From Acutalibacteraceae bacterium (GTDB lineage: Bacteria > Bacillota > Clostridia > Oscillospirales > Acutalibacteraceae): a DNA stretch of 62,451 bases. Shown here piece after piece: positions 2,959 to 59,059 of the stretch; the stretch's first letter is position 1, and each line of letters starts with the position of its first letter. Location of the stretch: NCBI GenBank assembly GCA_045656665.1, contig JAZORP010000054.1, positions 1 to 62,451 of the forward strand, written 5' to 3'. The notes under the pieces were generated by a model that saw nothing but the letters and a program-made list of their open reading frames with translations, did not search any database and had not been told where the DNA came from. Position numbers and translations under genes: made by a program.

Positions 2959-3717
2959 ATGGAAAATATAGAAAACACCACTCACTCAAATATTATCTGC
3001 GGCAGAAACCCCGTTCTTGAAGCTGTGCGCTCAGGCAGGGAGATAGACCGCCTGCTTGTGGCTCACGGTGTGAGCGGAGGGTCTGTGACCGCAATTATTG
3101 CAAAATGCAAAGCAAAAGGAATACTTATAAAAGAGATCAGCCCCCAGAAGCTCGACTATTATTGCGGCGGCGCAAATCATCAGGGTGTAGCCGTGATGTT
3201 TGCCTCTCAGGAGTATTCCACACCCGAGGAGATACTTGAGCTTGCAAAGCAGCGGGGCGAACAGCCTTTTGTAATTATCTGTGACGAAATCGAAGACCCG
3301 CACAATCTCGGCGCTATAATAAGAACTGCCGAGGCCTGCGGCGTTCACGGTATAATCATTCCAAAAAGGAGAAGCGCCTCCCTCAATGCTACGGTGGCAA
3401 AATCGGCAAGCGGCGCCCTCGAATATATGAAGGTGGCTCGTGTAACCAACATTGCCGACACAATAGACAGCCTTAAAGAAAACGGTGTCTGGGTTTTCGG
3501 CGCGGATATGGATGGTGACGATTTTGCTCAAGTAGATTTCGATATGCCCTGCGCACTTGTCATAGGAAACGAGGGAAAAGGAATAGGGCGGCTGATCGCC
3601 AAAAAGTGTGACCGTATAGTCAGCCTACCGATGCTGGGTAAAATCAACTCGCTTAATGCTTCGGTTGCAGCGGGCGTGCTGATGTACGAAGTGGTTCGCA
3701 AAAGGAGAAGAAAATGA
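2959..3717 (+). CDS. rlmB: TrmH/SpoU-family 23S rRNA 2'-O-methyltransferase (RlmB-like)
   Basis: GRNPVLEA N-terminal substrate-binding domain; DPHNLGAIIRTA, GNEGKGI, SLNASVAAGV SpoU motifs; start trimmed to ATG 2959. Confidence 0.85.
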   Translation: MENIENTTHSNIICGRNPVLEAVRSGREIDRLLVAHGVSGGSVTAIIAKCKAKGILIKEISPQKLDYYCGGANHQGVAVMFASQEYSTPEEILELAKQRGEQPFVIICDEIEDPHNLGAIIRTAEACGVHGIIIPKRRSASLNATVAKSASGALEYMKVARVTNIADTIDSLKENGVWVFGADMDGDDFAQVDFDMPCALVIGNEGKGIGRLIAKKCDRIVSLPMLGKINSLNASVAAGVLMYEVVRKRRRK

Positions 3718-6308
3718 AGTTTTATTCAAACAAACAAGATAAAGAACTTTTGGAAGATATAAACTCTGATGCTGTTGTTTTTGATGCAGAGCGAAAAGAA
3801 AAGCCGCATGCTCCCCACGCCCTGACCGCCGACGAGGTTTTAGGAGTGAATTTCCCAAAAACCGAAATTACCGATTCAACCGGAGCCTTGGAGGCCCTTA
3901 AAAAACGTATCGCAATGGCGGCTAATAAGGAGTTTGAGGCCGCAGAGCCCATTTCTGAAACCAAAGAGAAAGCCGCACAGCAGATAGAGATTGATATACC
4001 CGAAACTAAGGCCTCTGCTATGCCATCAACGCCTGTTTCTGAGCCAGCACCTCAAAAATCCTCATTAATGGATAAATGCCAGCCCTATTTCCTTGACGAT
4101 GATGGCAAAAAAATAGGGCTTGACCGCGAGCCGCTTTATAAACTGCAGAGCGTGGCTGACATTATTAAATCCGACAGCGAGGAAACCATCAAAAGGCTCT
4201 CTCAAAAGTATGGCATTTCTTTTGACACTCCCGTAATTTCTACACCAACGCCTAAAACGGCAGAAAAAAATATGGCAACTCAGTTTCAAACAAAGCCTCA
4301 GCCCGAGATTGTGAAGGAAGATCCTCCCGCAAAGCCTCAGCCCGAAGCTACTCCCGCTCCGATTGTGATATCGGACATTGATATGCCCTCTGTTGCAACC
4401 GAGCCTATCAAAGCCGACAATAGCGACAATAACGCAACCGTCACATTTACGCCAATATCCGGCGGTGATGCCTCCGCTCCGCACATCTCGGTCACGACAA
4501 AAACTCAGCACATTGACCTGACCGGCGAGCTTATTAGCTTGGCAAATTCGACCGAAGAAACCGAGAAAAGTGAAGTTGAGCTTGAAAAGAATGATTTTGA
4601 CGATTTTGTTCCCGAGGAAGAATTTAACGATATCGCGCAGGCCAAAAAAATAATCCGCCGCCTTTCGATAAAAAAACGGAACACATTTTTGGCAACATTT
4701 TTCTCTTTCTTTTTAACATCACTTTTGGCAATAGCAAAGCTCCCGTTTATCATTGATCTATTGCTTTCACACACATTTGTAGGTATGATCATTTGCTCGT
4801 CTCTTTTGGGCATAATTATAATACTTAATATCCCGATGTTTAAATCCTTGCCCAAATTTTTTAGCCGCCGCTGTGAGCCCGACTCACTTTCTGCAACATC
4901 AGCGTTAACTACCGTTCTTTACGCGGTATTCGGCATAATAAGCGATGAGCTTTTTCTTGATATCCTGCTTTTAGAGGCAATAATACTCAGCTTCCGTAGC
5001 CTTTCCTCTTTTTGGAAAATTTCTTTCAATCTTTCTAATTTTAAGCTTATAAGCAGAAATGAGACGAAGCAAGCGGTAAAGCTTATAAGTGACCATGCGG
5101 TCACCTTTGCAATGGCCAAGGATGCAATCGAGGGAGATGTTCTTGTGGCATCTTCACAAAAAGCCGATCACCTGTCGGGATACTTTAAGTACACTACCTA
5201 TGGCTCCTTTTTAGGAGGCAGGCTACGAATTTTGGCTATTCTGTCTTTGTTGCTCTCGTGTGTGACGGGGCTTGCTTGCGCTTCTTACTTTGACGGCGCC
5301 GTCCACGGCTTATTTGCCGCCGCCGCAATAGAGTGTTTTGCTGCTTTGCCTACGCTTTTCTTCATTGACACCCTTCCGCTTTACAACTCGGCCAAAAAGC
5401 TCAACCGAACAGGCGCAATGATCGCAGGCAAAACAGGCGCAGAACATTTAGAGATGGCAAACGCCGTTGTTTTGGGTTCCTGTGATTTATTCCCAACAGG
5501 AACAGTTACCCTGCATCAAATGAAGATACTCGCAGAAAACAATCTGGATGACACACTTATAAGAGCCGCATCTTTAACAGAATATATCGGCAGCACCCTT
5601 GCCCCGATTTTCAAAGGAATTGCCAAGACAGGCAATATTTCGGTTCTCCCCGATGCCGACACGGTTAAATATGAGGACCGAATGGGAATTTCAGGCTGGG
5701 TTGATAACCGCCTTCTTTTCATAGGCAACCGTACCCTTATGGAAGCTCACGGAATTGATGTTCCTTCTGTAGAAGTGGACCGCAAAATTCTCCGTCAAGG
5801 CTACTTTCCGGTTTATGTTGCAACAAGAGACAAGGCCTGCGCGCTGCTTATAGTACAGTACAATGTAAATCCCAAAACTGCTCGCGAACTAAGAAAACTT
5901 ACTAAACTTGGAGTAACACTTCTTATCGACAACTCCGACCCAAACCTCACAGAGGAAATGATATGCGATTATTTAGGGCTTTACAGCGATTCAGTTAAGG
6001 TTATGTCGGCTGCGGGATGCCATATGCACAAAAGCACCGTAACACCGGTTAAAAGCGCTCTCTCCCCTGCTGTATATAAGGGTAGCAGATTGGCTTTAGC
6101 AACCATCCTTAACTGCGCTTCAAGGATAAAGCGTTCCAACACTTTGCTCTGTGTGATTTATGTCATTGCCGCCATATTAGGCGCTGTAATATTTGCCTAC
6201 GCTTCACTCGGAGGCTCAGGTTCCATGATAAGCGGCGCAACCCTCTTGATCTATGGGCTCATTTGCACCGTAGCTTCATACCTTATTTATTTGACACAAA
6301 GGCCTTAA
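3714..6308 (+). CDS. large membrane protein: disordered Pro/Glu/Thr-rich N-terminus plus degenerate heavy-metal P-type ATPase-like core
   Basis: 864-aa ORF with an ATGA overlap to rlmB; multiple TM stretches; GISGWVDNRLLFIGNRTLMEAHGIDV closely resembles the CopA/ZntA N-domain; DKTGT, CPC and GDGxND motifs are degenerate (see findings). Confidence 0.6.
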   Translation: MKFYSNKQDKELLEDINSDAVVFDAERKEKPHAPHALTADEVLGVNFPKTEITDSTGALEALKKRIAMAANKEFEAAEPISETKEKAAQQIEIDIPETKASAMPSTPVSEPAPQKSSLMDKCQPYFLDDDGKKIGLDREPLYKLQSVADIIKSDSEETIKRLSQKYGISFDTPVISTPTPKTAEKNMATQFQTKPQPEIVKEDPPAKPQPEATPAPIVISDIDMPSVATEPIKADNSDNNATVTFTPISGGDASAPHISVTTKTQHIDLTGELISLANSTEETEKSEVELEKNDFDDFVPEEEFNDIAQAKKIIRRLSIKKRNTFLATFFSFFLTSLLAIAKLPFIIDLLLSHTFVGMIICSSLLGIIIILNIPMFKSLPKFFSRRCEPDSLSATSALTTVLYAVFGIISDELFLDILLLEAIILSFRSLSSFWKISFNLSNFKLISRNETKQAVKLISDHAVTFAMAKDAIEGDVLVASSQKADHLSGYFKYTTYGSFLGGRLRILAILSLLLSCVTGLACASYFDGAVHGLFAAAAIECFAALPTLFFIDTLPLYNSAKKLNRTGAMIAGKTGAEHLEMANAVVLGSCDLFPTGTVTLHQMKILAENNLDDTLIRAASLTEYIGSTLAPIFKGIAKTGNISVLPDADTVKYEDRMGISGWVDNRLLFIGNRTLMEAHGIDVPSVEVDRKILRQGYFPVYVATRDKACALLIVQYNVNPKTARELRKLTKLGVTLLIDNSDPNLTEEMICDYLGLYSDSVKVMSAAGCHMHKSTVTPVKSALSPAVYKGSRLALATILNCASRIKRSNTLLCVIYVIAAILGAVIFAYASLGGSGSMISGATLLIYGLICTVASYLIYLTQRP

Positions 6309-33795: not shown

Positions 33796-35172
33796 TCAGT
33801 TCAGCTTCGGCAGACTTGCTGCTGCAACCGATTGGCCAACCCTTCTCGAATTTTCATCAGGAATGTGAAGCTTTATCTTTGCTGCGAGCTCAGGGAACTC
33901 TTTATCAAGTACCTCTTGAGCCTTTGAAAGAAGGATAACTCCACCCTCTCCCGAAGTTACTCGGCCCATAATAAGCACGTGCTTGATATCATAAAACTCG
34001 CTGTAATAAGCGATAGCATAGCCAAAGCAGGTGCCGATAGTGTCGTAAACATCAGCTGCGCGCTGATCGCCTTTTTCCATAAGGCCCTGAACTACCTTTA
34101 GCTTTTCAGCAGGGGAAAGAGCTTCATCCAGCTCAATTCCCGCTCTGGGAGCAAGCTTTATAACACCGTCCTGCGAGAAATACTTAACACCGCAGCCGTA
34201 ATCGCCCGACCATTCATCAACCATAGCATCTTCATTATAATCAATGGGCGCGAATGCAAGCTCATTCAGCCAGCCGGTAATATTGCCTTCCATATCAACA
34301 TAGCCTGCAGCCTCGGATGTACCCATAGCAACACCGAGAACTCCATTGTCGTTGAGATTCATAGCTCCTGCCAATGCTGTGACATCGCCGTCATTTGCAA
34401 CCTCGATCGGAATGTCGGCGCCTATCTCTTTGGCAACATCGAGGTACATATTTTTAACCTTTTTATCGAAATCCTCGTCATTCACTTTTAAGAAAAGAGA
34501 AGCAACCATTATGCGATTATCGATATATACACCCGCGCTGGAAACACCAATAGCATCCACCCTCGGCATATGGGAAGCTGCGGTTTTCATAGCTTCGAGT
34601 ATGCCTTGATAGTGGTAATCAGGGTCAGAATTTGTTTTGGGGAACCATACAACCTCTTCGGAGTAAACACTCTCGCCGTTAATAACAGCGCTGACCTTAC
34701 GGTCACTGCCGCCCGCATCAAAGCCGATGCGGCAACCGTCAAGATGGCGGCCTACGGGCGCTGCGGAAGAGATGTTCTCGGGCGCATTTTCAATAGAGCA
34801 AAGCTCCACTTCAAAATCACGCTCGTAAACACGCTCCATAAAGTTCACATCAAAATCACGCTTTCCGCCGTGTGAAAATGCCTTTTTAATGTAATTACCG
34901 ACAGTTTCACTGCCTGCCACTATAATCTTATATCCGCCCGAAACCCACAAAAGAGACTTCGCGATGCGCTCTGCAAATTTGAAGTTTTCTTCATCCTTGC
35001 CTATTCCGTCGCAGAAAATGCGGGTTTTATAAACGGTGGTGTAACCCTTGTTTCTGACAGCGGCGATAACAATGTCCTGACCGTCTTCTGCTGTCTGCTC
35101 GCGCATTTCGCGGCAAACTACCGAAAGTGGCTCGAAACCAGGGTCTAATTTTGCTTTGACTTTAAGATTCAT
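33796..35172 (-). CDS. ROK/ASKHA-fold sugar kinase-like protein with about 150-aa N-terminal extra domain
   Basis: GFDAGGSD phosphate-1 loop; ANDGDVTALAG; GVAMGTSEAAGY; start set to ATG 35172 after GGAGGAG; overlaps the nagA stop by 11 nt. Confidence 0.65.
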   Translation of the reverse strand: MNLKVKAKLDPGFEPLSVVCREMREQTAEDGQDIVIAAVRNKGYTTVYKTRIFCDGIGKDEENFKFAERIAKSLLWVSGGYKIIVAGSETVGNYIKKAFSHGGKRDFDVNFMERVYERDFEVELCSIENAPENISSAAPVGRHLDGCRIGFDAGGSDRKVSAVINGESVYSEEVVWFPKTNSDPDYHYQGILEAMKTAASHMPRVDAIGVSSAGVYIDNRIMVASLFLKVNDEDFDKKVKNMYLDVAKEIGADIPIEVANDGDVTALAGAMNLNDNGVLGVAMGTSEAAGYVDMEGNITGWLNELAFAPIDYNEDAMVDEWSGDYGCGVKYFSQDGVIKLAPRAGIELDEALSPAEKLKVVQGLMEKGDQRAADVYDTIGTCFGYAIAYYSEFYDIKHVLIMGRVTSGEGGVILLSKAQEVLDKEFPELAAKIKLHIPDENSRRVGQSVAAASLPKLN

Positions 35173-36304
35173 ATTTAACTTCTCCTCCGATGAAAGTTTT
35201 GTTGACATTAAATTCACAGTCTGTGATTATAAGATCGGCATCCTTGCCGGTTTCTATAGAACCCTTTTTGTCATCAAGGCCTATTGCCGTTGCAGGGTTA
35301 AGACTTGCGCAATTGACACATTCATAAAGCGGGATATCAGAGTTTGTGTAAACATTCCAAACGCCCTTGTTGAGCTGCAGCACGCTACCTGCTACGGTGC
35401 CGTCCTCAAGGCGGCAGACGATATCATTATAAATAATTTTAGCGCCGCCGAGGGTGTACTCACCATACGGCAGACCTCCCGCCGGAAGACAGTCGGTAAT
35501 AAAGCAAAGCTTTCTGCCCTTTAATTTCCATATAATATCATAAAAGCAGGGGTTTACATGGAATGTGTCCACTATCATCTCACAGCTGACATCGGATTTA
35601 AGAGCCGCCGTAACCACACCGGGCGCTCTGTGAGCCAAAGGAGTCATCGCGTTGAATAAATGTGTTGCATGCTTCACTCCTGCAGCAACGCCGGCCATTG
35701 CAGTTTCATAGTCAGACGAGGTGTGCCCCATTGAAACCACAGTATTAGTGTCGCGGCAGATTTCTCTAATAGCCGAAAAGTCGGCCGTGTCGGTCTCGGG
35801 AGCTAGGGTGATTATACTTATAATGTCAGAATATTCTTTAACAAACGCCGCATCGGGTTTTAATATGTACTTAGCATCCTGCGCACCTTTTTTAGACTCG
35901 CTTATAAATGGGCCCTCTGCGTGGCAGCCTAAAATTTGAGAACCATCCCAATTCTTGCTTTCTTCTTTTAAATCACGGCAAACCTCAAGCGATTTTCTGA
36001 TAACCTTCATATCGACCGTCATTGTAGTGGGCAGATATCCCGTGACACCGTTTGCCAAAAGGCCTTTCGATATCGTGCGGATGCTTTCCTCCCTGCCGTC
36101 GCACACATCTTTACCGAGATATCCGTGAATGTGCAGGTCTATAAGTCCGGGAGCAACATATCCGCCTTTGGCATCAATAACTTCCGCATCGTAAGGTACA
36201 CTCTCCAAAGGCACTATACCCTCGATTTTATCAGAAAACAGCAATGCTTTATTTTCAATCACAGAATCTTTCAATACAATTTTTCCATTGATGATAGCTT
36301 TCAT
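35162..36304 (-). CDS. nagA: N-acetylglucosamine-6-phosphate deacetylase
   Basis: GLIDLHIHG, GHTSS, HLFNAM, GKDADLI amidohydrolase motifs. Confidence 0.92.
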   Translation of the reverse strand: MKAIINGKIVLKDSVIENKALLFSDKIEGIVPLESVPYDAEVIDAKGGYVAPGLIDLHIHGYLGKDVCDGREESIRTISKGLLANGVTGYLPTTMTVDMKVIRKSLEVCRDLKEESKNWDGSQILGCHAEGPFISESKKGAQDAKYILKPDAAFVKEYSDIISIITLAPETDTADFSAIREICRDTNTVVSMGHTSSDYETAMAGVAAGVKHATHLFNAMTPLAHRAPGVVTAALKSDVSCEMIVDTFHVNPCFYDIIWKLKGRKLCFITDCLPAGGLPYGEYTLGGAKIIYNDIVCRLEDGTVAGSVLQLNKGVWNVYTNSDIPLYECVNCASLNPATAIGLDDKKGSIETGKDADLIITDCEFNVNKTFIGGEVKYES

Positions 36305-44854: not shown

Positions 44855-44930
44855 CGAGGTGTGGCGCAGTTGGTAGCGCACTAGTTTTGGGAACTAGATG
44901 CCGCAGGTTCGAGCCCTGTCACCTCGACCA
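44855..44930 (+). tRNA. tRNA-Pro (anticodon UGG)
   Basis: Cloverleaf folded by hand: acceptor CGAGGTG/CACCTCG, D arm GCGC-AGTTGGTA-GCGC, anticodon arm CTAGT-TTTGGGA-ACTAG, T arm GCAGG-TTCGAGC-CCTGT, encoded CCA; 76 nt. Confidence 0.92.
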
Positions 44931-44975
44931 AAACTCCCCTGAAATCTACTGATTTCAGGGGAGTTTTATTTTGTT
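44931..44975. terminator. bidirectional terminator after tRNA-Pro and after the island operon
   Basis: AAACTCCCCTGAAATC / GATTTCAGGGGAGTTT 16-bp stem followed by a T-run. Confidence 0.7.
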
Positions 44976-44992
44976 TGTTATAAAAAAATATA

Positions 44993-45772
44993 TTAATTTC
45001 CTTCTCCAATATGATGAACTTGACCTATAAATTCAGGGTATCCATTTTCAATAGAAATTAATTCTTTAATATCTTCCAATTTAGCAAACCCCAAATCGTT
45101 TCTACATTTCACGTTATATACTTGAATATATTCATTCGTCATAGCGTCAACATACTGCAAACCAAACGAGATTTCCAAAGCATGCTTTGCATCATCAAGA
45201 TAAAATTTTAATTGTAATTTTTCTTTATCACCAACTTTAATCAATTTTCTATAGGACTTACCACCTATATTATTGTTATGGTGTATAACTAGTGTATTTG
45301 CGAAGCCATTTCCTATATTCTCTAGCTGCAAATCAATAACTACAACCTTATTTTTGTCTATTTCATAAAACCGGCTAGGCACTTCAATGATTTTATCATC
45401 TGTACTTTTTACTAATCTAACACTTTCTGCACGTATAAGTTTTATATTGATAAAAGGCATATGTGCAATTCTACTTTTAGCAAGGTCTGAATTTCGATAA
45501 TACCTTATTGTTAAGAAAACACCCAAAAATGATATTGAACCAGAAATAATACCTCCTATTATTCCTCCCCAATATGATGGTAATGAACTTGTCCAAGTAG
45601 TTAAATCTTTTACAAAGGACTTCTCCAGAAAACATTGAATTCCAACTGATATAAGTATAATAATTACAAGTGCAAGGCTAATAGTTATTATTTTTACAAA
45701 TAGATGTTTCTTTCGTGGCTTAACAATCTGCCCAAAACGTTGTTCGATATAAGATGTTCCTTTTTTTATCAT
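44993..45772 (-). CDS. hypothetical 2-TM membrane-anchored protein (259 aa), island gene 3
   Basis: Long ORF in about 30% G+C DNA; start trimmed to ATG 45772 after AAGGAG; basic N-terminus, two TM helices, beta-rich body with an LENIGNGFANTLVI motif; no family recognised. Confidence 0.6.
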   Translation of the reverse strand: MIKKGTSYIEQRFGQIVKPRKKHLFVKIITISLALVIIILISVGIQCFLEKSFVKDLTTWTSSLPSYWGGIIGGIISGSISFLGVFLTIRYYRNSDLAKSRIAHMPFINIKLIRAESVRLVKSTDDKIIEVPSRFYEIDKNKVVVIDLQLENIGNGFANTLVIHHNNNIGGKSYRKLIKVGDKEKLQLKFYLDDAKHALEISFGLQYVDAMTNEYIQVYNVKCRNDLGFAKLEDIKELISIENGYPEFIGQVHHIGEGN

Positions 45773-45788
45773 TTTTACTCCTTTGCAA

Positions 45789-46607
45789 TTAGCTTCTTCG
45801 ATACCACAAAGCCTTCTCTTCATCATCAGTTACTTCATAAAAAGTATAAGCGACTAATCTATCAATTTTATTTAACTCCACCAAAAGTTCCATAACATAA
45901 TCTTTTTCCATATCTAATTTTTCTGATATTTGTAATGCTGTAGAATTTGGTGATATACAAACTTCTTTAAAAATTTTAAACTTATCAGCATCACTTTTTG
46001 TTTCATTATGTACTACTACATTTTGAATTTTAGGTGCTTTGTCCATTGCTTTAAGTATATCACGATGAAATCTTTTATCATCTTCTTTTATGTACTTTAA
46101 GTGTTGAGAAATATCTTCCAGAGGTGACTGATACACTATCAAAAATCGGTATTGATTTATATCAATTTCAGTATGTTCGTTGAAACAATTATATGAAATA
46201 TCGAACTTTGCTTTCACTTTGGCAATTTGAGAAAAAGAAGGTTGACCACCAAGTAAAACTGTAATTTTCTGCTTGCTTGCCAAATAGAATATAGCATCAT
46301 TCAATTCTTCAAGTCTATTTCTATCCGCTTTATCATTAATATTATTAATGAATTCTTTGTTAATTTTTACTTGAACATTTTCCGCAGATATTGGCCCTTC
46401 GTTTTCAATTATAAAACACAACAATCCAGAGCGAATTATATCGAATCTAACAGTAACTATTGGTCTATTAACTAAATTAAATTGTTTTATCATTTCTTCA
46501 GTTTGTTCTTTAGCTGCCTTTGCTGATTTTCCATTATAAATACAAATGTAAATTGTTGCTACTACGTAAATAGCTGTAATAATAACCATTAACCAATCTG
46601 TCAACAT
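45789..46607 (-). CDS. hypothetical N-terminally anchored protein (272 aa), island gene 2
   Basis: Long ORF in AT-rich DNA; one N-terminal TM; IIENEGPISAENVQV motif resembling its neighbour; helix-rich, possibly wHTH-like C-terminus; no family recognised. Confidence 0.6.
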   Translation of the reverse strand: MLTDWLMVIITAIYVVATIYICIYNGKSAKAAKEQTEEMIKQFNLVNRPIVTVRFDIIRSGLLCFIIENEGPISAENVQVKINKEFINNINDKADRNRLEELNDAIFYLASKQKITVLLGGQPSFSQIAKVKAKFDISYNCFNEHTEIDINQYRFLIVYQSPLEDISQHLKYIKEDDKRFHRDILKAMDKAPKIQNVVVHNETKSDADKFKIFKEVCISPNSTALQISEKLDMEKDYVMELLVELNKIDRLVAYTFYEVTDDEEKALWYRRS

Positions 46608-46652
46608 TGTTTCACCCTCACTTCATATAAACTACATAGAATATATAAAAAT

Positions 46653-47213
46653 TTATTCTTTCATAGCATAAGCGACATTTAATAATACCTCCAACTTATT
46701 TTCTGGAAGTTCTTGAGCTATGTTAATTAGATCTAAAATACTAGATGATTTTCTTATATTGGTGTGATGTTTATTAGGTTTACTGTTTAAACGCATTTCT
46801 TTTTGAATCTCTTCATCAACATTTTCAAAATATTCCAATGTAACGCCAAAGAAATTTGATATTTTATTGAGTGTACAAACTCTAGGCATACTACCATTTT
46901 TCCAACGTGTAATAGCTGGAAGAGAGAGGTTTAACTCGTTAGCCACATTAGCAGGAGTAATGTTTGCCCTATTACAAAGTTCTAAAAATCTACTATAAAA
47001 AATTGTTGATTTATCGTTTGAATTATAGTCATTTTTCAATTCATCCATTGAAACCGCAAAAAAGTCTGCAATTTTTTTGCAGTTTGCATCCGTTGGATCA
47101 CCTCCATTTTTCCAGCGTGTCACACAAGATTTACTAATTTGAAGCATATTCGCTACCGAACAAGGCGTCATCCTTTTTGAATTACATAATAAAATAAACT
47201 TTTCATAAAACAT
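46653..47213 (-). CDS. XRE-family regulator with two tandem HTH domains
   Basis: Two repeats of the pattern ...CSVANMLQISKSCVTRWKNG... / ...ANVANELNLSLPAITRWKNG... Confidence 0.8.
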   Translation of the reverse strand: MFYEKFILLCNSKRMTPCSVANMLQISKSCVTRWKNGGDPTDANCKKIADFFAVSMDELKNDYNSNDKSTIFYSRFLELCNRANITPANVANELNLSLPAITRWKNGSMPRVCTLNKISNFFGVTLEYFENVDEEIQKEMRLNSKPNKHHTNIRKSSSILDLINIAQELPENKLEVLLNVAYAMKE

Positions 47214-47244
47214 ATTTGTAGTACTCCATAAGATTTTTTAATTT

Positions 47245-47273
47245 ATAATATCATAAAAAGTTAATTTTTTCAA
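47245..47273 (-). promoter_or_regulatory. candidate sigma-A promoter of the island operon
   Basis: Minus strand reads TTGAAA, 17 nt spacer, TATTAT; about 30 nt upstream of the XRE start. Confidence 0.35.
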
Positions 47274-47604
47274 CCACAGGTTTATAATATATGATACTAA
47301 TTACTGTGATTTTATTTTTCCTTAATTATATAGAATACCGTTCTTGTTATAAAAAAGAAAATACAAAAACAAGAACTAAAACCTTACGAAAAGAATTACT
47401 TTATATAAAATACGGGTATAACGGGGTTGATAGAGAGTCTCTAGCAAACCGACAAGCAAGTTATTTTTTATTTATTAATGATAAAACCACATAGCAACCA
47501 AAGGATATGTACTGTTTATAGTTGCGAAAAAATCAGTATTTATGCGGTTTTACGCTTGATTACTGTAACGCTACTCCGACCATTTTAGCGGTTTTAGCCG
47601 CATA

Positions 47605-47639
47605 AAAGCCGCAGAGCATAAACGCTTTGCGGCTTTTTC
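47605..47639 (+). terminator. orphan terminator-like hairpin
   Basis: AAAGCCGCA...TGCGGCTTT stem followed by TTTC; no convincing upstream CDS on the + strand. Confidence 0.4.
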
Positions 47640-47761
47640 AAAAAACATTTTGTATTAAATTTTTTAAATATTATATACGTAGGGAAATAGATAATGTTTA
47701 TAAACCCACAGAATATTATTACAGTTTCTGTGAAAACTTATATAAAAAGGGGAGTGATAAA

Positions 47762-48061
47762 ATGGAAACGAATGAACTGGTTAAAAATACGCTGGACCAG
47801 ATTCCACAGGCCGTCCCAAACGCAAAACGCATAGTAGGTCTTGTGAAAAAGAACGGCAGAGTGACGGGATATAAATTATCAGATGAAACCTTTATAACAA
47901 AATCCCAAGCAGTGGAAAAGGCAAAGCAAGGGCAAATCGCGGGAGTGGGGATCGCGCACAGAAGAGATACTGAATATCTCAAAGCAATCCCAAATGGAAA
48001 TGAAAATGACAACCTCGGCAATCTGCCGGCGTTTCCACCTGATAATCAATCTTACAAATAA
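47762..48061 (+). CDS. DUF3892-like small protein (99 aa)
   Basis: METNELVKN...GRVTGYKLSDETFITKSQAVEKAKQGQIAGV...YLKAIPNGNENDNLGNLP resembles my recollection of DUF3892; start trimmed to the ATG after GGGGAGTG. Confidence 0.6.
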   Translation: METNELVKNTLDQIPQAVPNAKRIVGLVKKNGRVTGYKLSDETFITKSQAVEKAKQGQIAGVGIAHRRDTEYLKAIPNGNENDNLGNLPAFPPDNQSYK

Positions 48062-48097: not shown

Positions 48098-48238
48098 CAT
48101 TAACGCCCATTGGACCGTCGGGGGTAGCGTAAGCGGGCGAGTCGGGAGTGAATGACAGTCCGGTGGACTCTCAGAGTCGCCCATGGACCTAGCCGCAGTG
48201 TGAGACCGCCGTTCCCTACGTAATGCAATTCCCCTCCC
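48098..48238. repeat. MITE-like structured intergenic repeat, second copy
   Basis: Core AGCGTAAGCG..GGGAGTGAATGACAGTCCGGTGGACT.TCAGAGTCGCCCA shared with 41177-41250; right end is the inverted TACGTAGGGAACGGCG end module. Confidence 0.55.
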
Positions 48239-48249
48239 TAGTATTATAA

Positions 48250-48286
48250 AAAACAAAAAATCGCAGAGTTTAACTTCTCTGCGATT
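48250..48286 (-). terminator. rho-independent terminator ending the RiPP-like operon
   Basis: Minus strand reads TCGCAGAG AAGTTAAA CTCTGCGA followed by TTTTTTGTTTTT. Confidence 0.65.
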
Positions 48287-48739
48287 TTATTTTTTTGAAA
48301 ACAACGGGCGGATATATTTATAATATTTTTTAAAATAATGTAAAAAACCCCATGTTCGGGTGTATAAAAAATACCCAACTGATTTTTTTACCGGAATTTC
48401 CCTTCCGTTTCTGTTAAACGAAGCTACCACACCGATTATCTGATTATCCTTTACAGGAAACTCCTTTTGCCACTGATTATCTCCGCGGCAGGTATAGGAA
48501 CCATCCTTATGAACCTTTATAATGCGGTGGAGAATAAATTCTCCATTCTCGCGTCTATAAAACGGCACGTCATATTTCTTGAGCGGAATGGTCGGCTTCA
48601 CAAGGGTTATTTTATCGCGGCGATGATAAACCATCGGTTGCATACTGTAGCCCGAAACCGTAAATGTGACGCGGGCATCGCGCTCAAGCGTTTCAGCTAT
48701 CAGCGGATACATATCCGCCATAGGCACAAGTTCACTCAT
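48287..48739 (-). CDS. S26/S24-superfamily peptidase, ER/archaeal (SipW-like) signal-peptidase type, no membrane anchor
   Basis: SGYSMQPM (Ser box), ILHRII (His box), CRGDNQ box; 150 aa; no N-terminal TM helix. Confidence 0.7.
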   Translation of the reverse strand: MSELVPMADMYPLIAETLERDARVTFTVSGYSMQPMVYHRRDKITLVKPTIPLKKYDVPFYRRENGEFILHRIIKVHKDGSYTCRGDNQWQKEFPVKDNQIIGVVASFNRNGREIPVKKSVGYFLYTRTWGFLHYFKKYYKYIRPLFSKK

Positions 48740-48998
48740 CTATGCAGCCGTCTTCCCGCAAGCTATCGATAAAACTCAAAGTATCAGCAAGGGCGGTTTC
48801 CTTATCTATATTATATTTATCCGCTAAAAGGGAGGCCAGCGTCTCGGCATCTGTTTCCTGCTCCATATTTTCCCACAAAAAGCGGCCAGCCTCATTAAAG
48901 GTGGTAACACCTGTGAAAAGCAACGATTCGCTCTCCATATCCATAAGTATATTTTGGCCACATAACGATTTTAATAAAAAATTGCTCTTTCTTTTCAT
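48732..48998 (-). CDS. PqqD-family protein (RiPP recognition element-like)
   Basis: FNEAGRFLWENME...ETLASLLADKYNID...ALADTLSFIDSLREDGCI is the typical PqqD pattern; 88 aa; 8-nt overlap with the peptidase gene. Confidence 0.8.
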   Translation of the reverse strand: MKRKSNFLLKSLCGQNILMDMESESLLFTGVTTFNEAGRFLWENMEQETDAETLASLLADKYNIDKETALADTLSFIDSLREDGCIDE

Positions 48999-49024
48999 GT
49001 GGATTTCCTCTTTTGCTTTGTATT

Positions 49025-49726
49025 TTAATCTCTTTTGCCGCTCATAGTCTCCCAGGACATTTTAGCGGCTTCAAGAGTCGGCGTGCATCCCATTTTATAA
49101 ACAGGTACTGCATTTAAAATTTTCTCCAAAACATCAAGTTGCAAGCTCATGCTTTCGCTATCCGTTTTCTTATAGCAGGCAGTCAGCGATGCGAAAACTG
49201 CTTCGGCTTTTTCGGTAGGCTTTATCCAATTTTGCTCGCTTCTGGTTAAAAAGCAGATTGCCTCCAGCTTAACTCCAAGGTTAACCGAAATATCGTTCTT
49301 GCCGCTCCAAGGCGATCCGTATGCATAGATACCGTCTTGCATAATGCGAAGAATGGGTTTATCATCATTTAATATATATGCCCTATCGCCAAAAAGCTCA
49401 AGCCATTTGGAAGTGTGGGTGGATTTGCCTGTGCCGGATGGGGCTGAGAAAAGATAAGCCCTGTCATCCACAACAACTGCCGAAGAATGAAACCTCAAAC
49501 CGCCGCGCCTGAACATCTGCAAAGAAAATAAATACCCCTCATATAAATATAACGCCGTGGTATCATCGCAAAGAGGATATCTCTCTTTTGCAGAAAGGAG
49601 GCTTGACTCAATAACAAAATCGGTAGGCGCATCGTCTTTGATGAGATATTTCCGGGCTCGCTCAATTGTGACCTCGCTGCAATTTTTGAGTTCGACCACA
49701 AAATCGGCGATACGGTACTTTGCCAT
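49025..49726 (-). CDS. HPr kinase/phosphorylase-like P-loop protein
   Basis: FSAPSGTGKSTHT Walker-A-like loop followed by AYILNDDKPIL, as in the HprK C-domain and HprK-related RiPP kinases; AAGGAG SD. Confidence 0.65.
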   Translation of the reverse strand: MAKYRIADFVVELKNCSEVTIERARKYLIKDDAPTDFVIESSLLSAKERYPLCDDTTALYLYEGYLFSLQMFRRGGLRFHSSAVVVDDRAYLFSAPSGTGKSTHTSKWLELFGDRAYILNDDKPILRIMQDGIYAYGSPWSGKNDISVNLGVKLEAICFLTRSEQNWIKPTEKAEAVFASLTACYKKTDSESMSLQLDVLEKILNAVPVYKMGCTPTLEAAKMSWETMSGKRD

Positions 49727-49738
49727 AAATTTCTCCTT

Positions 49739-49772
49739 TTAAAAAAGTGATAGGGAAAAACTCCCTATCACT
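49739..49772 (-). terminator. intrinsic terminator/attenuator between the precursor-like ORF and the enzyme genes
   Basis: Minus strand reads AGTGATAGGGA GTTTT TCCCTATCACT (11-bp stem) followed by TTTTTT, immediately before the kinase SD. Confidence 0.65.
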
Positions 49773-49787
49773 CTTAAGTTAGATTCC

Positions 49788-49916
49788 TTAACCTTCGTTG
49801 CTTCCCAAAATTGTAAGCCCGCCGCCGCCGGTCAATGTTCCGCCGCCGGTAAGACTGTTTGCAATAGCTTCAACAGCTTCGAAATCTATGCGTATCTTTT
49901 TTGGTGCTTCGTACAT
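49788..49916 (-). CDS. 42-aa precursor-peptide-like ORF
   Basis: Hand translation gives MYEAPKKIRIDFEAVEAIANSLTGGGTLTGGGGLTILGSNEG; GAGGTGA SD 5-6 nt upstream; not in the ORF track; the + strand ORF 49798..50088 is its shadow. Confidence 0.5.
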   Translation of the reverse strand: MYEAPKKIRIDFEAVEAIANSLTGGGTLTGGGGLTILGSNEG

Positions 49917-49965: not shown

Positions 49966-51354
49966 TTACTGAGCCGCTGTGTAAGCTGTTTTGTATGCTA
50001 CGGCAGCAGCAGATTCGTCAGCTTGGATCATATCGATGAAAGATACAGAACCGGTAGCATCGATATCACCTTCACCGCTTTCTGTTAAGAAATAAATTGT
50101 GAAGTTGAGATCATCGCCGAACTGGTCAACGTTCATACCGCTGTAGGTTACATTAGCTTCATACTTAACTCTGCCCTTTAATACATACTCCCAAGCAGTA
50201 TCATCAATAGCAGCAGCGCCGAATTTAACATCTGAACCGCCATTAACATTTGCCTTTAAACCGATTTCAGTAATCTTAGATTCAGCAAGAGCAATCTGCT
50301 CGGCAAGAGCTTTGAACTGAGCTCCTGTCATAGAAACATTAGCGGTTGCGCTCATATCTTTGAGGTTGTAAGTAGATGTGAAAGAAGCACTGTCGCCGAT
50401 TGTGCCGGTAGTACCCTCAGCTTCTGCATCCTCAGCTGCAGCCCAAGCAGTGTAAGCAGCGGCTACATTATCGGTAACAACATCCTTAACAGCCTTAGAA
50501 GCTACTTCAGACTTAAGAACGATTTCATCGTCGCCTACAGTGTACTTAACATAAGCAACGAAGTTAACGGTGTCTTCCATCTGGTCAAAGTTAGCGCCTG
50601 TGTAAGCTGCCCAAGGATCGAGTGTAGCAGAGCCAGCTAAAATAGCAGCCCAACCTGCATCGTCGATTGCAACAGCAGAACCGTCTGCGGTGTTCTCATC
50701 GGGAGTAGCACCGATAGCAACCTTAACGCCAACCTCGGTGATTTTACCGCCTATGCTGTTGATACGGTCTGCGAGAGCTTTAGCTTCATCAGCAGTGTAA
50801 GCAGCGGTGCCTTTTACAGCCTGAGTAGCATTGTCACCCGAAACGGTAACGCCCTTAACAGCAGCAGCGATTTCTGCATCAGAAGCTGCAACGGTCAAAG
50901 TAGCGCCTGTCTCTGCAACTGTAACATCTGCTAAATCGGCATCAGCGTAAACGGAACCGTCAGCAAAAGTGATAGCAAACGTGTCGCCATAAGCTGCGTT
51001 AGCAGGAACTGAAACATCAAATGTGAACAAATCGCCACCTGTTACAGAAGCGAGATTCTCTGAAAGGAAATAGATTTCCTTTTCTTCGTGTACAGCAACA
51101 TTAGCGTCAGAAATATCTTCAGCCAAAGTCAAGTCGCCAATATTAACGGTGAACTCAGCGCCTGCAACAGCGTCAATATTCTCAGCATTAACGCGAATAG
51201 TTACAGTGTCGCCTGCTTTCGGTGTGGTGGTTGAAGCGATCAACTTGATGGCAGCTGTACCTTCAGCAGATGCCATAATACCGCAAGTAATTGCAGACAA
51301 GCAGAGAACCACAGCCAAAACACACGCCAAAGATTTTTTGAAAAGTTTTGTCAT
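49966..51354 (-). CDS. secreted cohesin-like protein with two C-terminal repeats
   Basis: Signal peptide MTKLFKKSLACVLAVVLCLSAITCGIMASA; N-terminal cohesin-like beta domain (KAGDTVTIRVNAENIDAVAGAEFTV); two about 110-aa repeats; start trimmed to ATG 51354 after AGGAGA. Confidence 0.6.
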   Translation of the reverse strand: MTKLFKKSLACVLAVVLCLSAITCGIMASAEGTAAIKLIASTTTPKAGDTVTIRVNAENIDAVAGAEFTVNIGDLTLAEDISDANVAVHEEKEIYFLSENLASVTGGDLFTFDVSVPANAAYGDTFAITFADGSVYADADLADVTVAETGATLTVAASDAEIAAAVKGVTVSGDNATQAVKGTAAYTADEAKALADRINSIGGKITEVGVKVAIGATPDENTADGSAVAIDDAGWAAILAGSATLDPWAAYTGANFDQMEDTVNFVAYVKYTVGDDEIVLKSEVASKAVKDVVTDNVAAAYTAWAAAEDAEAEGTTGTIGDSASFTSTYNLKDMSATANVSMTGAQFKALAEQIALAESKITEIGLKANVNGGSDVKFGAAAIDDTAWEYVLKGRVKYEANVTYSGMNVDQFGDDLNFTIYFLTESGEGDIDATGSVSFIDMIQADESAAAVAYKTAYTAAQ

Positions 51355-51426
51355 CTTTGTTTCTCCTAACCGGCTAAAAAGCCTGATTTTTTGGCCTTCG
51401 CCCAAAGGCCGGGGGTGAAAAAAAGT

Positions 51427-51456: not shown

Positions 51457-51580
51457 ATTATAGCACCAATCAAAAAATGTGTCAAGCATAAAAAAATGAC
51501 ATTGTGCACAAAATGTGAAAGTTGTTTTTGTGCGAAAAACAGAAAGCATTTTTCCTATGTATAATAAGTTCCAATTCTTG

Positions 51581-58064: not shown

Positions 58065-58201
58065 TTTATTACATATTTTAACCTTCAAAACAAACGCTTT
58101 TGCAGCCAAAGCTGTTAAAGCGTTTTTTATTACTATTCGACACGGTTTTCTTTTAAAATCACCAATTGCCGTATAAAATTATGAAAAAGGGGGGATTTGC
58201 C

Positions 58202-58660
58202 GTGGAAAACACAAAAACAATCACAACCAACAAAAAAGCCTTTCACGAATACTTTGTTATTGAAAGCTTTGAAGCGGGTATTTCCCTTTCAGGCACAGAG
58301 GTCAAATCCATCCGTCAGGGCGGCGTTAATTTAAAGGATGCCTGGTGCAGCGTTGATAACGGCGAAATGATTATCAAACAAATGCATATCAGCCCCTATG
58401 AGCACGGCAATATATTTAACCGTCCTCCCGCGCGCAATCGCAAGCTACTGCTGCACAAGCGCGAGATAATGCGGCTTTTGGGTGCGGTAAAGCAGGAGGG
58501 CTTAGCCCTTATCCCGCTCTCACTTTATTTTAAGGGCTCCCTTGTTAAGGTGCAGTTGGGGCTCTGCAAGGGCAAAAAGCTTCACGACAAGCGCGAGGCG
58601 GCCGCAAAGCGAGATGCCGACAGAGCAATTGACAGGGCAATTAAGGAACAAAACAGATAA
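58202..58660 (+). CDS. smpB: SsrA-binding protein
   Basis: NKKAFHEYF, GTEVKS, KLLLHKRE motifs; GTG 58202 preferred (AAGGGGGG SD); ATG 58181 is the alternative. Confidence 0.92.
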   Translation: MENTKTITTNKKAFHEYFVIESFEAGISLSGTEVKSIRQGGVNLKDAWCSVDNGEMIIKQMHISPYEHGNIFNRPPARNRKLLLHKREIMRLLGAVKQEGLALIPLSLYFKGSLVKVQLGLCKGKKLHDKREAAAKRDADRAIDRAIKEQNR

Positions 58661-58701: not shown

Positions 58702-59059
58702 GGGGATGTAAAGGTTTCGACGGGGATTTTGAAATATCGGAAGCGAGCAGCGGTGCGGAACCGCTCTAAAATCCGCATTAAAAATTAACTAACAACAATA
58801 AAGTTGCTTTAGCTGCCTAATTTAAGGCGGCTCATCTAACCCGGAAGCACCACGGTCCGGCAAGGGTGTTATTTTAGTGGTGAACGTGAACGGCGGAGCG
58901 CTCCTGCCGCCGTCACGGTTTGGGAGCTACTGAATACGGCAGTCCGACACTTGACGGCCGTATAAGGGAATGTAAAGATGTGTCTGCGCTCGGAGATGCC
59001 GGTACGGATAGATTTTCGGACGCGGGTTCGATTCCCGCCATCTCCACCAAAAATCCTTG
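58702..59059 (+). ncRNA. ssrA: tmRNA (ssrA)
   Basis: 5' GGGGATGTAAAGGTTTCGACGGGG; 3' GGACGCGGGTTCGATTCCCGCCATCTCCACCA with a G3:U pair in the acceptor stem; tag frame ...AAC AAC AAT AAA GTT GCT TTA GCT GCC TAA (..NNNKVALAA); next to smpB. Confidence 0.92.

Follow-up and report, generated by a model that had tools for sequence, protein, structure and literature searches.

A set of four genes on the minus strand of contig JAZORP010000054.1 (assembly GCA_045656665.1, Acutalibacteraceae bacterium), whose whole stretch of 62,451 nucleotides (nt) is called the window here, very probably forms a minimal cassette for a ribosomally made peptide with post-translational modification (RiPP) of the linear polyphosphorylated peptide (LPP) type. 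The genes are arranged in the order A-K-B-S, encoding a short precursor peptide, a kinase-like P-loop protein, a discrete RiPP recognition element (RRE) and a serine peptidase of signal peptidase fold, and the cassette would be a divergent relative, in gut Clostridia, of the LPP clusters. These clusters were described by Popov et al. (Nat Commun 2026;17:6633; PMC13381572), who report about 126 of them, mostly in Bacilli; the operon expressed in that study, from Paenibacillus alginolyticus DSM5050, has the order lppA-K-B-S-D-N.

A preliminary description of the window had called the cassette undescribed and assignable to no named RiPP class. Both statements have to be given up: the gene set and its order match those of the informally named LPP family, and clostridial pairs of peptidase and RRE are listed, unanalysed, in Supplementary Data 1 of PMC13381572. 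The mechanism suggested at that stage, a leader-guided and kinase-modified linear peptide from which an S26-like protease removes the leader, fared better and agrees, by analogy, with the experiments reported for the Paenibacillus lpp genes (PMC13381572).

Organization of the transcription unit

The features of the unit are given below in the direction of transcription.

51457..51485, minus strand: promoter-like site, TTGACA-17-TATAAT with a TG extension; 12/12 hexamer matches, sigma-70-type, by consensus match only
49966..51405, minus strand: gene for a 479-amino-acid (aa) secreted protein with a signal peptide and two C-terminal repeats
49788..49916, minus strand: predicted precursor peptide gene, LppA-like, 42 aa; leader shared with short open reading frames (ORFs) of related loci
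49743..49775 (about), minus strand: hairpin and T run, with a 14-bp stem directly 3' of the precursor stop codon
49025..49726, minus strand: P-loop protein gene, LppK-like, 233 aa; ScmC family PF27840, HprK/PEPCK fold
48732..48998, minus strand: discrete RRE gene, LppB-like, 88 aa; PqqD fold, PF05402
48287..48739, minus strand: gene for a SipW/SEC11-type (S26B-like) serine peptidase without membrane anchor, LppS-like, 150 aa; TIGR02228
48257..48288, minus strand: intrinsic terminator, with a 12-bp stem, an 8-nt loop and a T run

From 49916 to 48257 the minus strand thus carries the short ORF, the hairpin, the P-loop, PqqD and peptidase genes and the terminator, in that order; all of them, together with the ribosome-binding site of the short ORF, are found where the preliminary description had placed them. 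The P-loop and PqqD genes are separated by 26 nt, and the PqqD and peptidase genes overlap by 8 nt; one gene caller starts the peptidase at a GTG four codons downstream, which gives a 146-aa protein (P0121). The secreted-protein gene stops 49 nt ahead of the short ORF. In the scan, no promoter or terminator was detected between these two genes, and no other minus-strand promoter-like site between the one at 51485-51457 and the short ORF. Given that promoter and the lack of any promoter or terminator before the short ORF, the start of transcription is placed further upstream: the unit probably begins at 51485-51457, ahead of the secreted-protein gene, which is probably co-transcribed with the cassette as an associated gene and is not a known LPP component. 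Of the boundaries first proposed for the unit, then, the end at the terminator stands, while the start misses both the secreted-protein gene and its promoter. The GC content of the cassette is normal, unlike that of the low-GC island at 44855-47500.

Precursor peptide and hairpin

The product of the short ORF is MYEAPKKIRIDFEAVEAIANSLTGGGTLTGGGGLTILGSNEG, and its ATG is preceded at 6 nt by the Shine-Dalgarno sequence GAGGTG. The predicted leader, M1-A14, contains the motif Y2xxP5-x6-F12-E-A14, and the predicted core, V15-G42, is rich in Gly, Thr and Ser. Cleavage after A14 is predicted by analogy with the Fx[T/A] motif of LPP precursors, which are reported to share the leader consensus YxxPxVLxHQxIxFETxxS (Px9Fx[T/A]) and to have a variable C-terminus (PMC13381572).

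In many loci a related short ORF precedes the kinase gene on the same strand. These ORFs have in common the pattern [Y/F]xxP-x6-F-x-[A/S/T/V]; beyond it the C-terminus varies and has many acidic, Gly, Ser and Thr residues. Examples of their leaders are MKKTYERPEIEITSFSTEDIITAS..., MKKFFMEPEIEIEKFTVEDIITES... and MKFEFPEVNKISFES.... Searching for the leader by regular expression proved far too permissive, with chance matches in the hundreds, and a small hidden Markov model (HMM) of the leader was used in its place. For the 17 peptides that seeded it, this model is circular, and independent support comes from its extra matches in loci L007, L048, L075 and L019 and from L087-L089, the closest relatives of the window locus, which were obtained after the model and each have a called precursor-like gene of 34-36 aa at the expected position. 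In the nearest relative, L087, the precursor is MYEAPKMVRVNFVSENVATTGGGVGGGGVVDISGED and the kinase is 61% identical to that of the window. Over the first 12 precursor codons, the window and L087 differ by four synonymous and four conservative changes (the kinase genes are 61% identical in DNA), a pattern that fits purifying selection. Because related loci carry short ORFs at the same position with a common leader, these comparisons indicate that the 42-codon ORF is a real gene and not a chance ORF. A conserved short ORF beside homologous trios of enzyme genes had been set beforehand as a test of the cassette, and it is present, with a common leader.

One subgroup, formed by the window peptide and the precursors of L010, L029, L053 and L062, shares a conserved Ser nine residues after the leader Phe, and on the strength of this conservation S21 appears to be the best candidate phosphosite. 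The intergenic region between precursor and kinase folds with a minimum free energy of -21.4 kcal/mol (z = -5.2 against shuffles), and a strong hairpin was present 3' of the precursor stop codon in 11/11 loci examined. This hairpin is probably a partial terminator that sets the ratio of precursor to enzymes, with precursor transcripts in excess, a reading of it as an attenuator that draws on what is generally known of RiPP operons.

The three predicted maturation proteins

The family assignments first made for the three proteins (HprK-like P-loop protein, PqqD protein, SipW-type peptidase) hold, although weakly, and for the P-loop protein and the peptidase the calls look correct but weak when single sequences are compared. 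The P-loop protein matches the NCBIfam models ScmC (TIGR04249, E 7.6e-6) and HprK_rel_A (TIGR04352, E 1.1e-3), and its homologues in a metagenome collection amount to 5363 protein clusters, all of them tagged Pfam PF27840 'ScmC'. Across 24 aligned homologues H80, S82, G98TGKSTHT105, N120DDKP124 and D145 are invariant; the order H80, Walker A, NDD is what we take to be the order of motifs in HprK/P. The AlphaFold2 (AF2) model has a mean predicted local distance difference test score (pLDDT) of 93.6, and its best folds in the PDB are PEPCK and HprK/P, with E-values of the same order and PEPCK ranked at the top. It is by the weak NCBIfam matches, the motif layout and the AF2/Foldseek result only that the protein is tied to HprK/PEPCK. 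The likeness to the HprK C-domain noted in the preliminary description stands in motif layout and fold, and no Pfam match to Hpr_kinase_C accompanies it; fold and layout are also all that the protein shares with HprK/P. A literature search on ScmC/SynChlorMet returned unrelated acronyms only. By its matches to TIGR04249 and TIGR04352, its motif layout and its AF2 fold the protein agrees with the kinases of LPP type, and it is a predicted kinase.

The 88-aa protein belongs to the PqqD family (PF05402, E 4.5e-15) and matches the NCBIfam model lasso_PqqD_Bac (E 2.3e-7). Compared with the PDB, the profile of its family finds TbiB1 (7.6e-9), TfuB1 (1.4e-8), PbaB1 (3.7e-8) and LppB (8.9e-6). Alignment to LppB with hhalign gives a probability of 96.3% and puts N35, D72 and F76 in register with N33, D70 and F74 of LppB, residues that contact the leader and that are described as fixing the kink at Pro, hydrogen-bonding Tyr and dividing two pockets (PMC13381572). 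From its sequence the protein qualifies as a discrete RRE of PqqD fold and is predicted to bind a YxxP leader.

The peptidase matches the archaeal-type signal peptidase I model TIGR02228 (E 9.4e-8, under the curated cut-off) and Peptidase_S24 (E 2.7e-4). Its best sequence matches in the PDB are SEC11A/C, whose SGSMEP, IVHRV and KGDN align with SGYSMQP, ILHRI and RGDN of the peptidase. Residues S32, H71 and D87 are invariant in the family and E93 is conserved at 90% or more. Alignment to LppS with hhalign (probability 98.4%, E 1e-14) places S32, H71 and E93 in register with the catalytic S29, H68 and D93, so that the third catalytic position is Glu in the window peptidase and Asp in LppS; the N-terminal helix is paired there with the helix through which LppS contacts LppB. 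The AF2 model (pLDDT 89.8, predicted on the basis of database homologues) is a beta-barrel of signal-peptidase/LexA type with SEC11A as the closest fold; it has an N-terminal helix at residues 7-19 (MADMYPLIAETLE) and two C-terminal helices that are aromatic and basic. Judged by eye on this model, the N-terminal helix is amphipathic and no transmembrane segment, and the C-terminal helices form no transmembrane span, which agrees with the absence of a membrane anchor suggested beforehand. Without an anchor, the active site is predicted to be cytoplasmic and out of reach of the signal peptide of a Sec-exported protein.

The peptidase shares with SipW and SEC11 (S26B) the fold of the catalytic domain and the Ser-His(-acid) boxes SM.P, HR and GDN, SEC11A being at the top both by sequence and by structure; it differs from them in the missing membrane anchor and in its predicted action in the cytoplasm on an RRE-bound leader and not on Sec signal peptides. 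Its closest relatives among the peptidases of the sequence similarity network (SSN) of PMC13381572 are in cluster 9 (1e-25, 33-36% identity) and then in cluster 4 (3e-17, 29% identity), and the window RRE is likewise 30-36% identical to the RREs of clusters 9 and 4. According to the same source, cluster 9 comes from uncultured Ruminococcus and Firmicutes CAG:56 and cluster 4 from Desulfosporosinus, Dehalobacter and Anaerocolumna; in Supplementary Data 1 their RREs are labelled 'RRE others' and their LPP features 'ND'.

In several sister loci a GNAT acetyltransferase domain is fused to the C-terminus of the peptidase, for a total of 324-331 aa; the domain is not in the window copy. The fusion hints at an acetylation coupled to leader cleavage. 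The fused genes are as follows.

L001, 8996-9985: GNAT-fused peptidase
L003, 9001-9975: GNAT-fused peptidase
L087, 1500-2495: GNAT-fused peptidase
L089, 5202-6191: GNAT-fused peptidase

Proposed pathway and relation to known systems

In the pathway proposed for the cassette, the 42-aa precursor would be translated from a transcript begun at the promoter ahead of the secreted-protein gene, and the hairpin would let part of the transcripts run on into the enzyme genes. The RRE would bind the Y2-x-x-P5 motif of the leader as an added beta strand, and the P-loop protein, with ATP, would phosphorylate the Gly/Thr/Ser-rich core at a Ser or Thr, possibly more than once on one residue. The soluble peptidase (S32/H71, with the acidic E93) would then receive its substrate from the RRE and cut after F12-E13-A14, so releasing a linear phosphopeptide of 28 residues. 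Phosphorylation, RRE-dependent cleavage and the preference for a phosphorylated substrate are transferred here by analogy from the distant Paenibacillus homologue. In that system, as reported in PMC13381572, LppK in B. subtilis adds one to four phosphates to core Ser3; LppS cuts after T-1 of the conserved F-E-T, only with LppB present, and is inactive as the S29A, H68A or D93A mutant; unphosphorylated precursor is poorly processed; and LppN has no detectable effect. The final product of the LPP system and its function are still unknown in that account.

The cassette resembles the LPP clusters in the order A-K-B-S, equal to lppA-K-B-S, with a precursor, an HprK-like kinase, a discrete RRE and a peptidase of about 150 aa without membrane anchor; alignment brings the catalytic Ser, His and acidic residue into register, and the RRE has kept the residues in contact with Tyr and Pro. 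The category 'HprK kinase' of PMC13381572 is formed mainly by TIGR04249 and TIGR04352, plus TIGR04355, and its category of signal peptidase I (SpI) by TIGR02228; the kinase and peptidase of the window are likened to these categories because TIGR04249, TIGR04352 and TIGR02228 are the models that match them. Related clostridial loci, though not the window, carry an MsbA-like exporter and an NTP_transf_5 gene in the manner of lppD and lppN, and some of them lie within capsule (Wzz/CpsD/CpsB) loci, an association also reported for LPP clusters in Bacilli (PMC13381572). Some LPP cores are Gly-rich as well, e.g. ...FETKASGNDNGGGDGGGPGGNFWS. The differences are that the host is of gut or rumen Clostridium type and not one of the Bacilli; that the peptidase is nearest to clusters 9 and 4 and not to cluster 1; that the leader is of Px6F type, the third catalytic residue Glu and the conserved Ser further from the predicted cleavage site; that lppD and lppN are lacking from the window; and that the subclade of the window has a secreted repeat protein directly upstream, with GNAT-fused peptidases in sister loci. 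The window peptidase falls outside SSN cluster 1, which is defined by edges of E <= 1e-23 to SpIs of P. alginolyticus type. By sequence, the window copy is outside the clade characterised in PMC13381572, as it has neither the D and N genes nor membership of cluster 1, though the four core parts are common to both. In the main text of that article there is no mention of Clostridia, GNAT or membrane.

Paeninodin-type lasso-peptide clusters are similar in their discrete RRE for a [Y/W]xxP leader and in an HprK-like kinase that phosphorylates Ser of the precursor (PMC13381572, PMC7533575), and NTP_transf_5 and ABC exporter genes like theirs are frequent in loci related to the window. They differ in having an Asn-synthetase-like cyclase and B2, both absent from the cassette, which has instead a serine peptidase of signal peptidase fold and a linear predicted product. 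A survey of lasso peptides in the rumen (PMC7533575) was considered as a precedent and set aside, its clusters being true cyclase-containing ones of a different type. The SynChlorMet ScmC and HPr-rel-A systems (TIGR04249, TIGR04352/TIGR04353) also pair an HprK-related P-loop protein with a protein of the PqqD family; unlike them, the window has no radical SAM/SPASM protein (ScmE/F) among the ORFs scanned and no second HprK-related kinase.

Occurrence in other genomes

Scanning a single genome for each species turned up relatives of the P-loop protein at a minimum of 583 loci. The best 80 of these at least 583 loci are almost entirely from metagenome-assembled genomes of gut or rumen Clostridia (Oscillospiraceae, Acutalibacteraceae, Faecousia, 'Eubacterium'). 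Gene content was counted in the 55 loci with enough flanking sequence, and kinase, RRE and peptidase (K+B+S) were present together in 26/55. Twelve of the 26 are minimal as in the window, six have an exporter and an NTP_transf_5 gene, five an exporter only and three the transferase only, so that the MsbA-like exporter is found in 11, the transferase in nine and neither in 12; Pfam identifies these accessory genes as ABC_membrane plus ABC_tran and as NTP_transf_5 (1e-31 to 2e-53). The loci L010 and L062 have precursor and kinase only, with no RRE or peptidase nearby.

Flanks of up to about 5 kb (97 genes from 35 K+B+S loci) were surveyed for recurrent families, which were Wzz (6), CpsD-like ATPases (7), CpsB (4) and SLH proteins. 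Capsule-type flanks, with the Wzz chain-length determinant, a CpsD-like ATPase and the CpsB phosphatase, are found e.g. in L038, L039, L061 and L077. No Asn-synthetase, transglutaminase-like, radical SAM or YcaO gene was recurrent in the flanks of the 35 loci, and a core enzyme is therefore not a constant neighbour of the trio; had it been one, this would have told against the cassette as first described. In the window itself, no lasso cyclase, B2 protease, radical SAM, YcaO or LanC-type protein was found among the cassette neighbours and the 20 largest remaining ORFs scanned, which bears out the earlier statement that these core enzymes, and an exporter, are missing there.

Alternative explanations

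Several observations weigh against the assignment to the LPP type. Similarity to the characterised LPP proteins is remote at the level of sequence: the window peptidase is 24% identical to LppS (BLASTP E 3e-9, and 1.5e-9 to another cluster-1 member), the window RRE gives no match to LppB by BLAST, and its profile scores lasso B1 proteins (TbiB1, PbaB1) above LppB. The HMM scores of the P-loop protein are far under the curated cut-offs (25.5 vs 125 bits for ScmC, 18.2 vs 200 bits for HprK_rel_A); the protein has no Pfam match at E <= 1, Hpr_kinase_C and Hpr_kinase_N included, and the profile of its family, built from 24 sequences, found no match by sequence in the PDB. The leader, with Y2xxP5 and F12-E-A14, follows the logic of the LPP consensus but in a different register: its spacing is Px6F where LPP leaders have Px9F, the residue two after Pro is Lys and not the hydrophobic one of the consensus, and the conserved Ser is 9 residues past Phe in the window family vs 5 in LppA. 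Neither an exporter with transmembrane and nucleotide-binding domains nor an NTP_transf_5 gene is in the 62-kb window, and the kinase-like gene stands alone in 15/55 loci (e.g. L016, L017, L018, L021); the ScmC-family protein may act in trans or have additional roles.

Three other readings have to be set against these data. The P-loop protein could serve a RiPP cassette and yet not be a Ser/Thr kinase, acting by carboxylate activation or nucleotidylation or as a phosphorylase. This is improbable, although the ScmC family PF27840 is uncharacterised and is not Hpr_kinase_C, the scores are as low as just given, PEPCK is ranked first by fold with E-values like those of HprK/P, and the gene is frequently found without RRE or peptidase; the Walker A motif, the upstream His and NDD are invariant in an HprK/P layout, LppK, shown to phosphorylate Ser3, is in a category annotated mainly by TIGR04249/TIGR04352 (PMC13381572), and the HprK-like enzymes of paeninodin-type clusters, too, act on Ser of the precursor. 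The order of the RRE matches and the hit to lasso_PqqD_Bac, together with a YxxP of lasso type in the leader, would be expected if the genes were the accessory half of a lasso pathway, with kinase and RRE as in paeninodin-type clusters and an Asn-synthetase-like cyclase, perhaps with B2, encoded elsewhere. In Bacilli about one-third of the SpI-type clusters adjoin lasso genes (PMC13381572), and the window covers only 62 kb of the genome. Such a pathway is nevertheless quite improbable here: no cyclase or B2 was found in the window ORFs scanned and none recurs in the 35 related loci, the cassette encodes its own leader peptidase, and the Paenibacillus lpp genes are reported to function without a cyclase (PMC13381572). 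Moreover, in the predicted core VEAIANSLT..., counted from a cleavage site that is itself predicted, residues 7-9 are S, L and T, where a lasso core would have the Asp or Glu of the macrolactam.

That no peptide is matured at all would be the most surprising outcome. The short ORF would then be a chance ORF and the proteins regulatory or concerned with stress or defence, or the peptidase would act on the upstream secreted protein as SipW does on TasA/TapA. A SipW-like peptidase and a secreted-protein gene do share one apparent operon, and even for the characterised LPP system product and function are not established in PMC13381572; but the short ORF is conserved in position, strand and leader, with the codon changes described above, the modelled peptidase with its predicted cytoplasmic site should not reach a Sec-exported signal peptide, and the large upstream proteins are not one family across the wider loci. 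The LPP-type cassette thus remains the preferred reading.

Secreted repeat protein and significance of the family

The 479-aa protein encoded upstream likely has its true start at Met18, MTKLFKKSLACVLAVVLCLSAITCGIMASAEG. It has no sequence match in Pfam, NCBIfam or the PDB, and its C-terminal repeats, in two copies, are of about 150 aa each. Its homologues in L001 (E 7e-15), L003 (9e-12) and, as a fragment, L087 (3e-8) are likewise encoded immediately 5' of the precursor gene; L088 and L089 have a signal-peptide protein of 562-575 aa in the equivalent position. In all the nearest relatives of the window locus, as in the window, a protein of this kind thus adjoins the precursor gene on its upstream side. 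The corresponding genes in relatives are as follows.

L001, 6083-7798: upstream signal-peptide protein gene
L003, 6139-7794: upstream signal-peptide protein gene
L088, 4058-5785: upstream signal-peptide protein gene
L089, 2264-3952: upstream signal-peptide protein gene

The secreted repeat protein is common only to the subclade of the window. A large upstream gene as the universal partner of the cassette was rejected, the wider loci being heterogeneous (FG-GAP, SLH, GDSL/MBG, InlB-repeat, UvrD and MetH-like proteins), and a SipW-like processing of the upstream protein by the peptidase was rejected since the peptidase lacks a membrane anchor.

A broader proposal, advanced only tentatively and on balance doubtful, is that the cassettes form a large sister family of the LPP clusters in gut and rumen Clostridia whose mode of action differs after the leader has been cleaved. 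Within the subclade, an A-K-B-S set lacking an exporter would always accompany, and probably be co-transcribed with, a secreted two-repeat protein, the peptidase would often be fused to GNAT, and the product would be a short, Gly-rich, acidic (poly)phosphopeptide acting together with this surface protein or in the biology of envelope or capsule, and not an exported antimicrobial. The data as a whole suggest that uncultured Clostridia of gut and rumen commonly carry a sister clade with the logic of LPP chemistry. The minimal cassettes could be simpler models for the function of phosphorylated linear RiPPs, and they show that a widespread peptide family of the gut microbiome is overlooked by current rules for RiPP mining. 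What is added here is the breadth of the clade in gut and rumen Clostridia, the minimal architecture and the gene partners, and no new principle.

Other features of the window

The low-GC island near the cassette, at 44855-47500, has a GC content of 0.28-0.30 vs 0.42-0.45 on both flanks and adjoins a tRNA-Pro gene (44855-44930). It encodes, on the minus strand, a double-HTH XRE-type protein (46653-47213) and two proteins without Pfam match (44993-45826 and 45789-46607), and has the appearance of what is left of an integrated element. Next comes a gene for a DUF3892 protein (47627-48061, plus strand). About 150 nt of GC-rich, non-coding sequence (48100-48250) lie just past the cassette terminator; no Rfam family matches them, and neither strand folds better than shuffled sequence. 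At E <= 1e-6, no Pfam family matches the two large ORFs at 3714-6308 (plus strand, 864 aa) and 33796-35217 (minus strand, 473 aa). Further along, smpB (58166-58660) is followed immediately by a full-length gene for tmRNA (58702-59049, 153.9 bits), an ordinary housekeeping pair.

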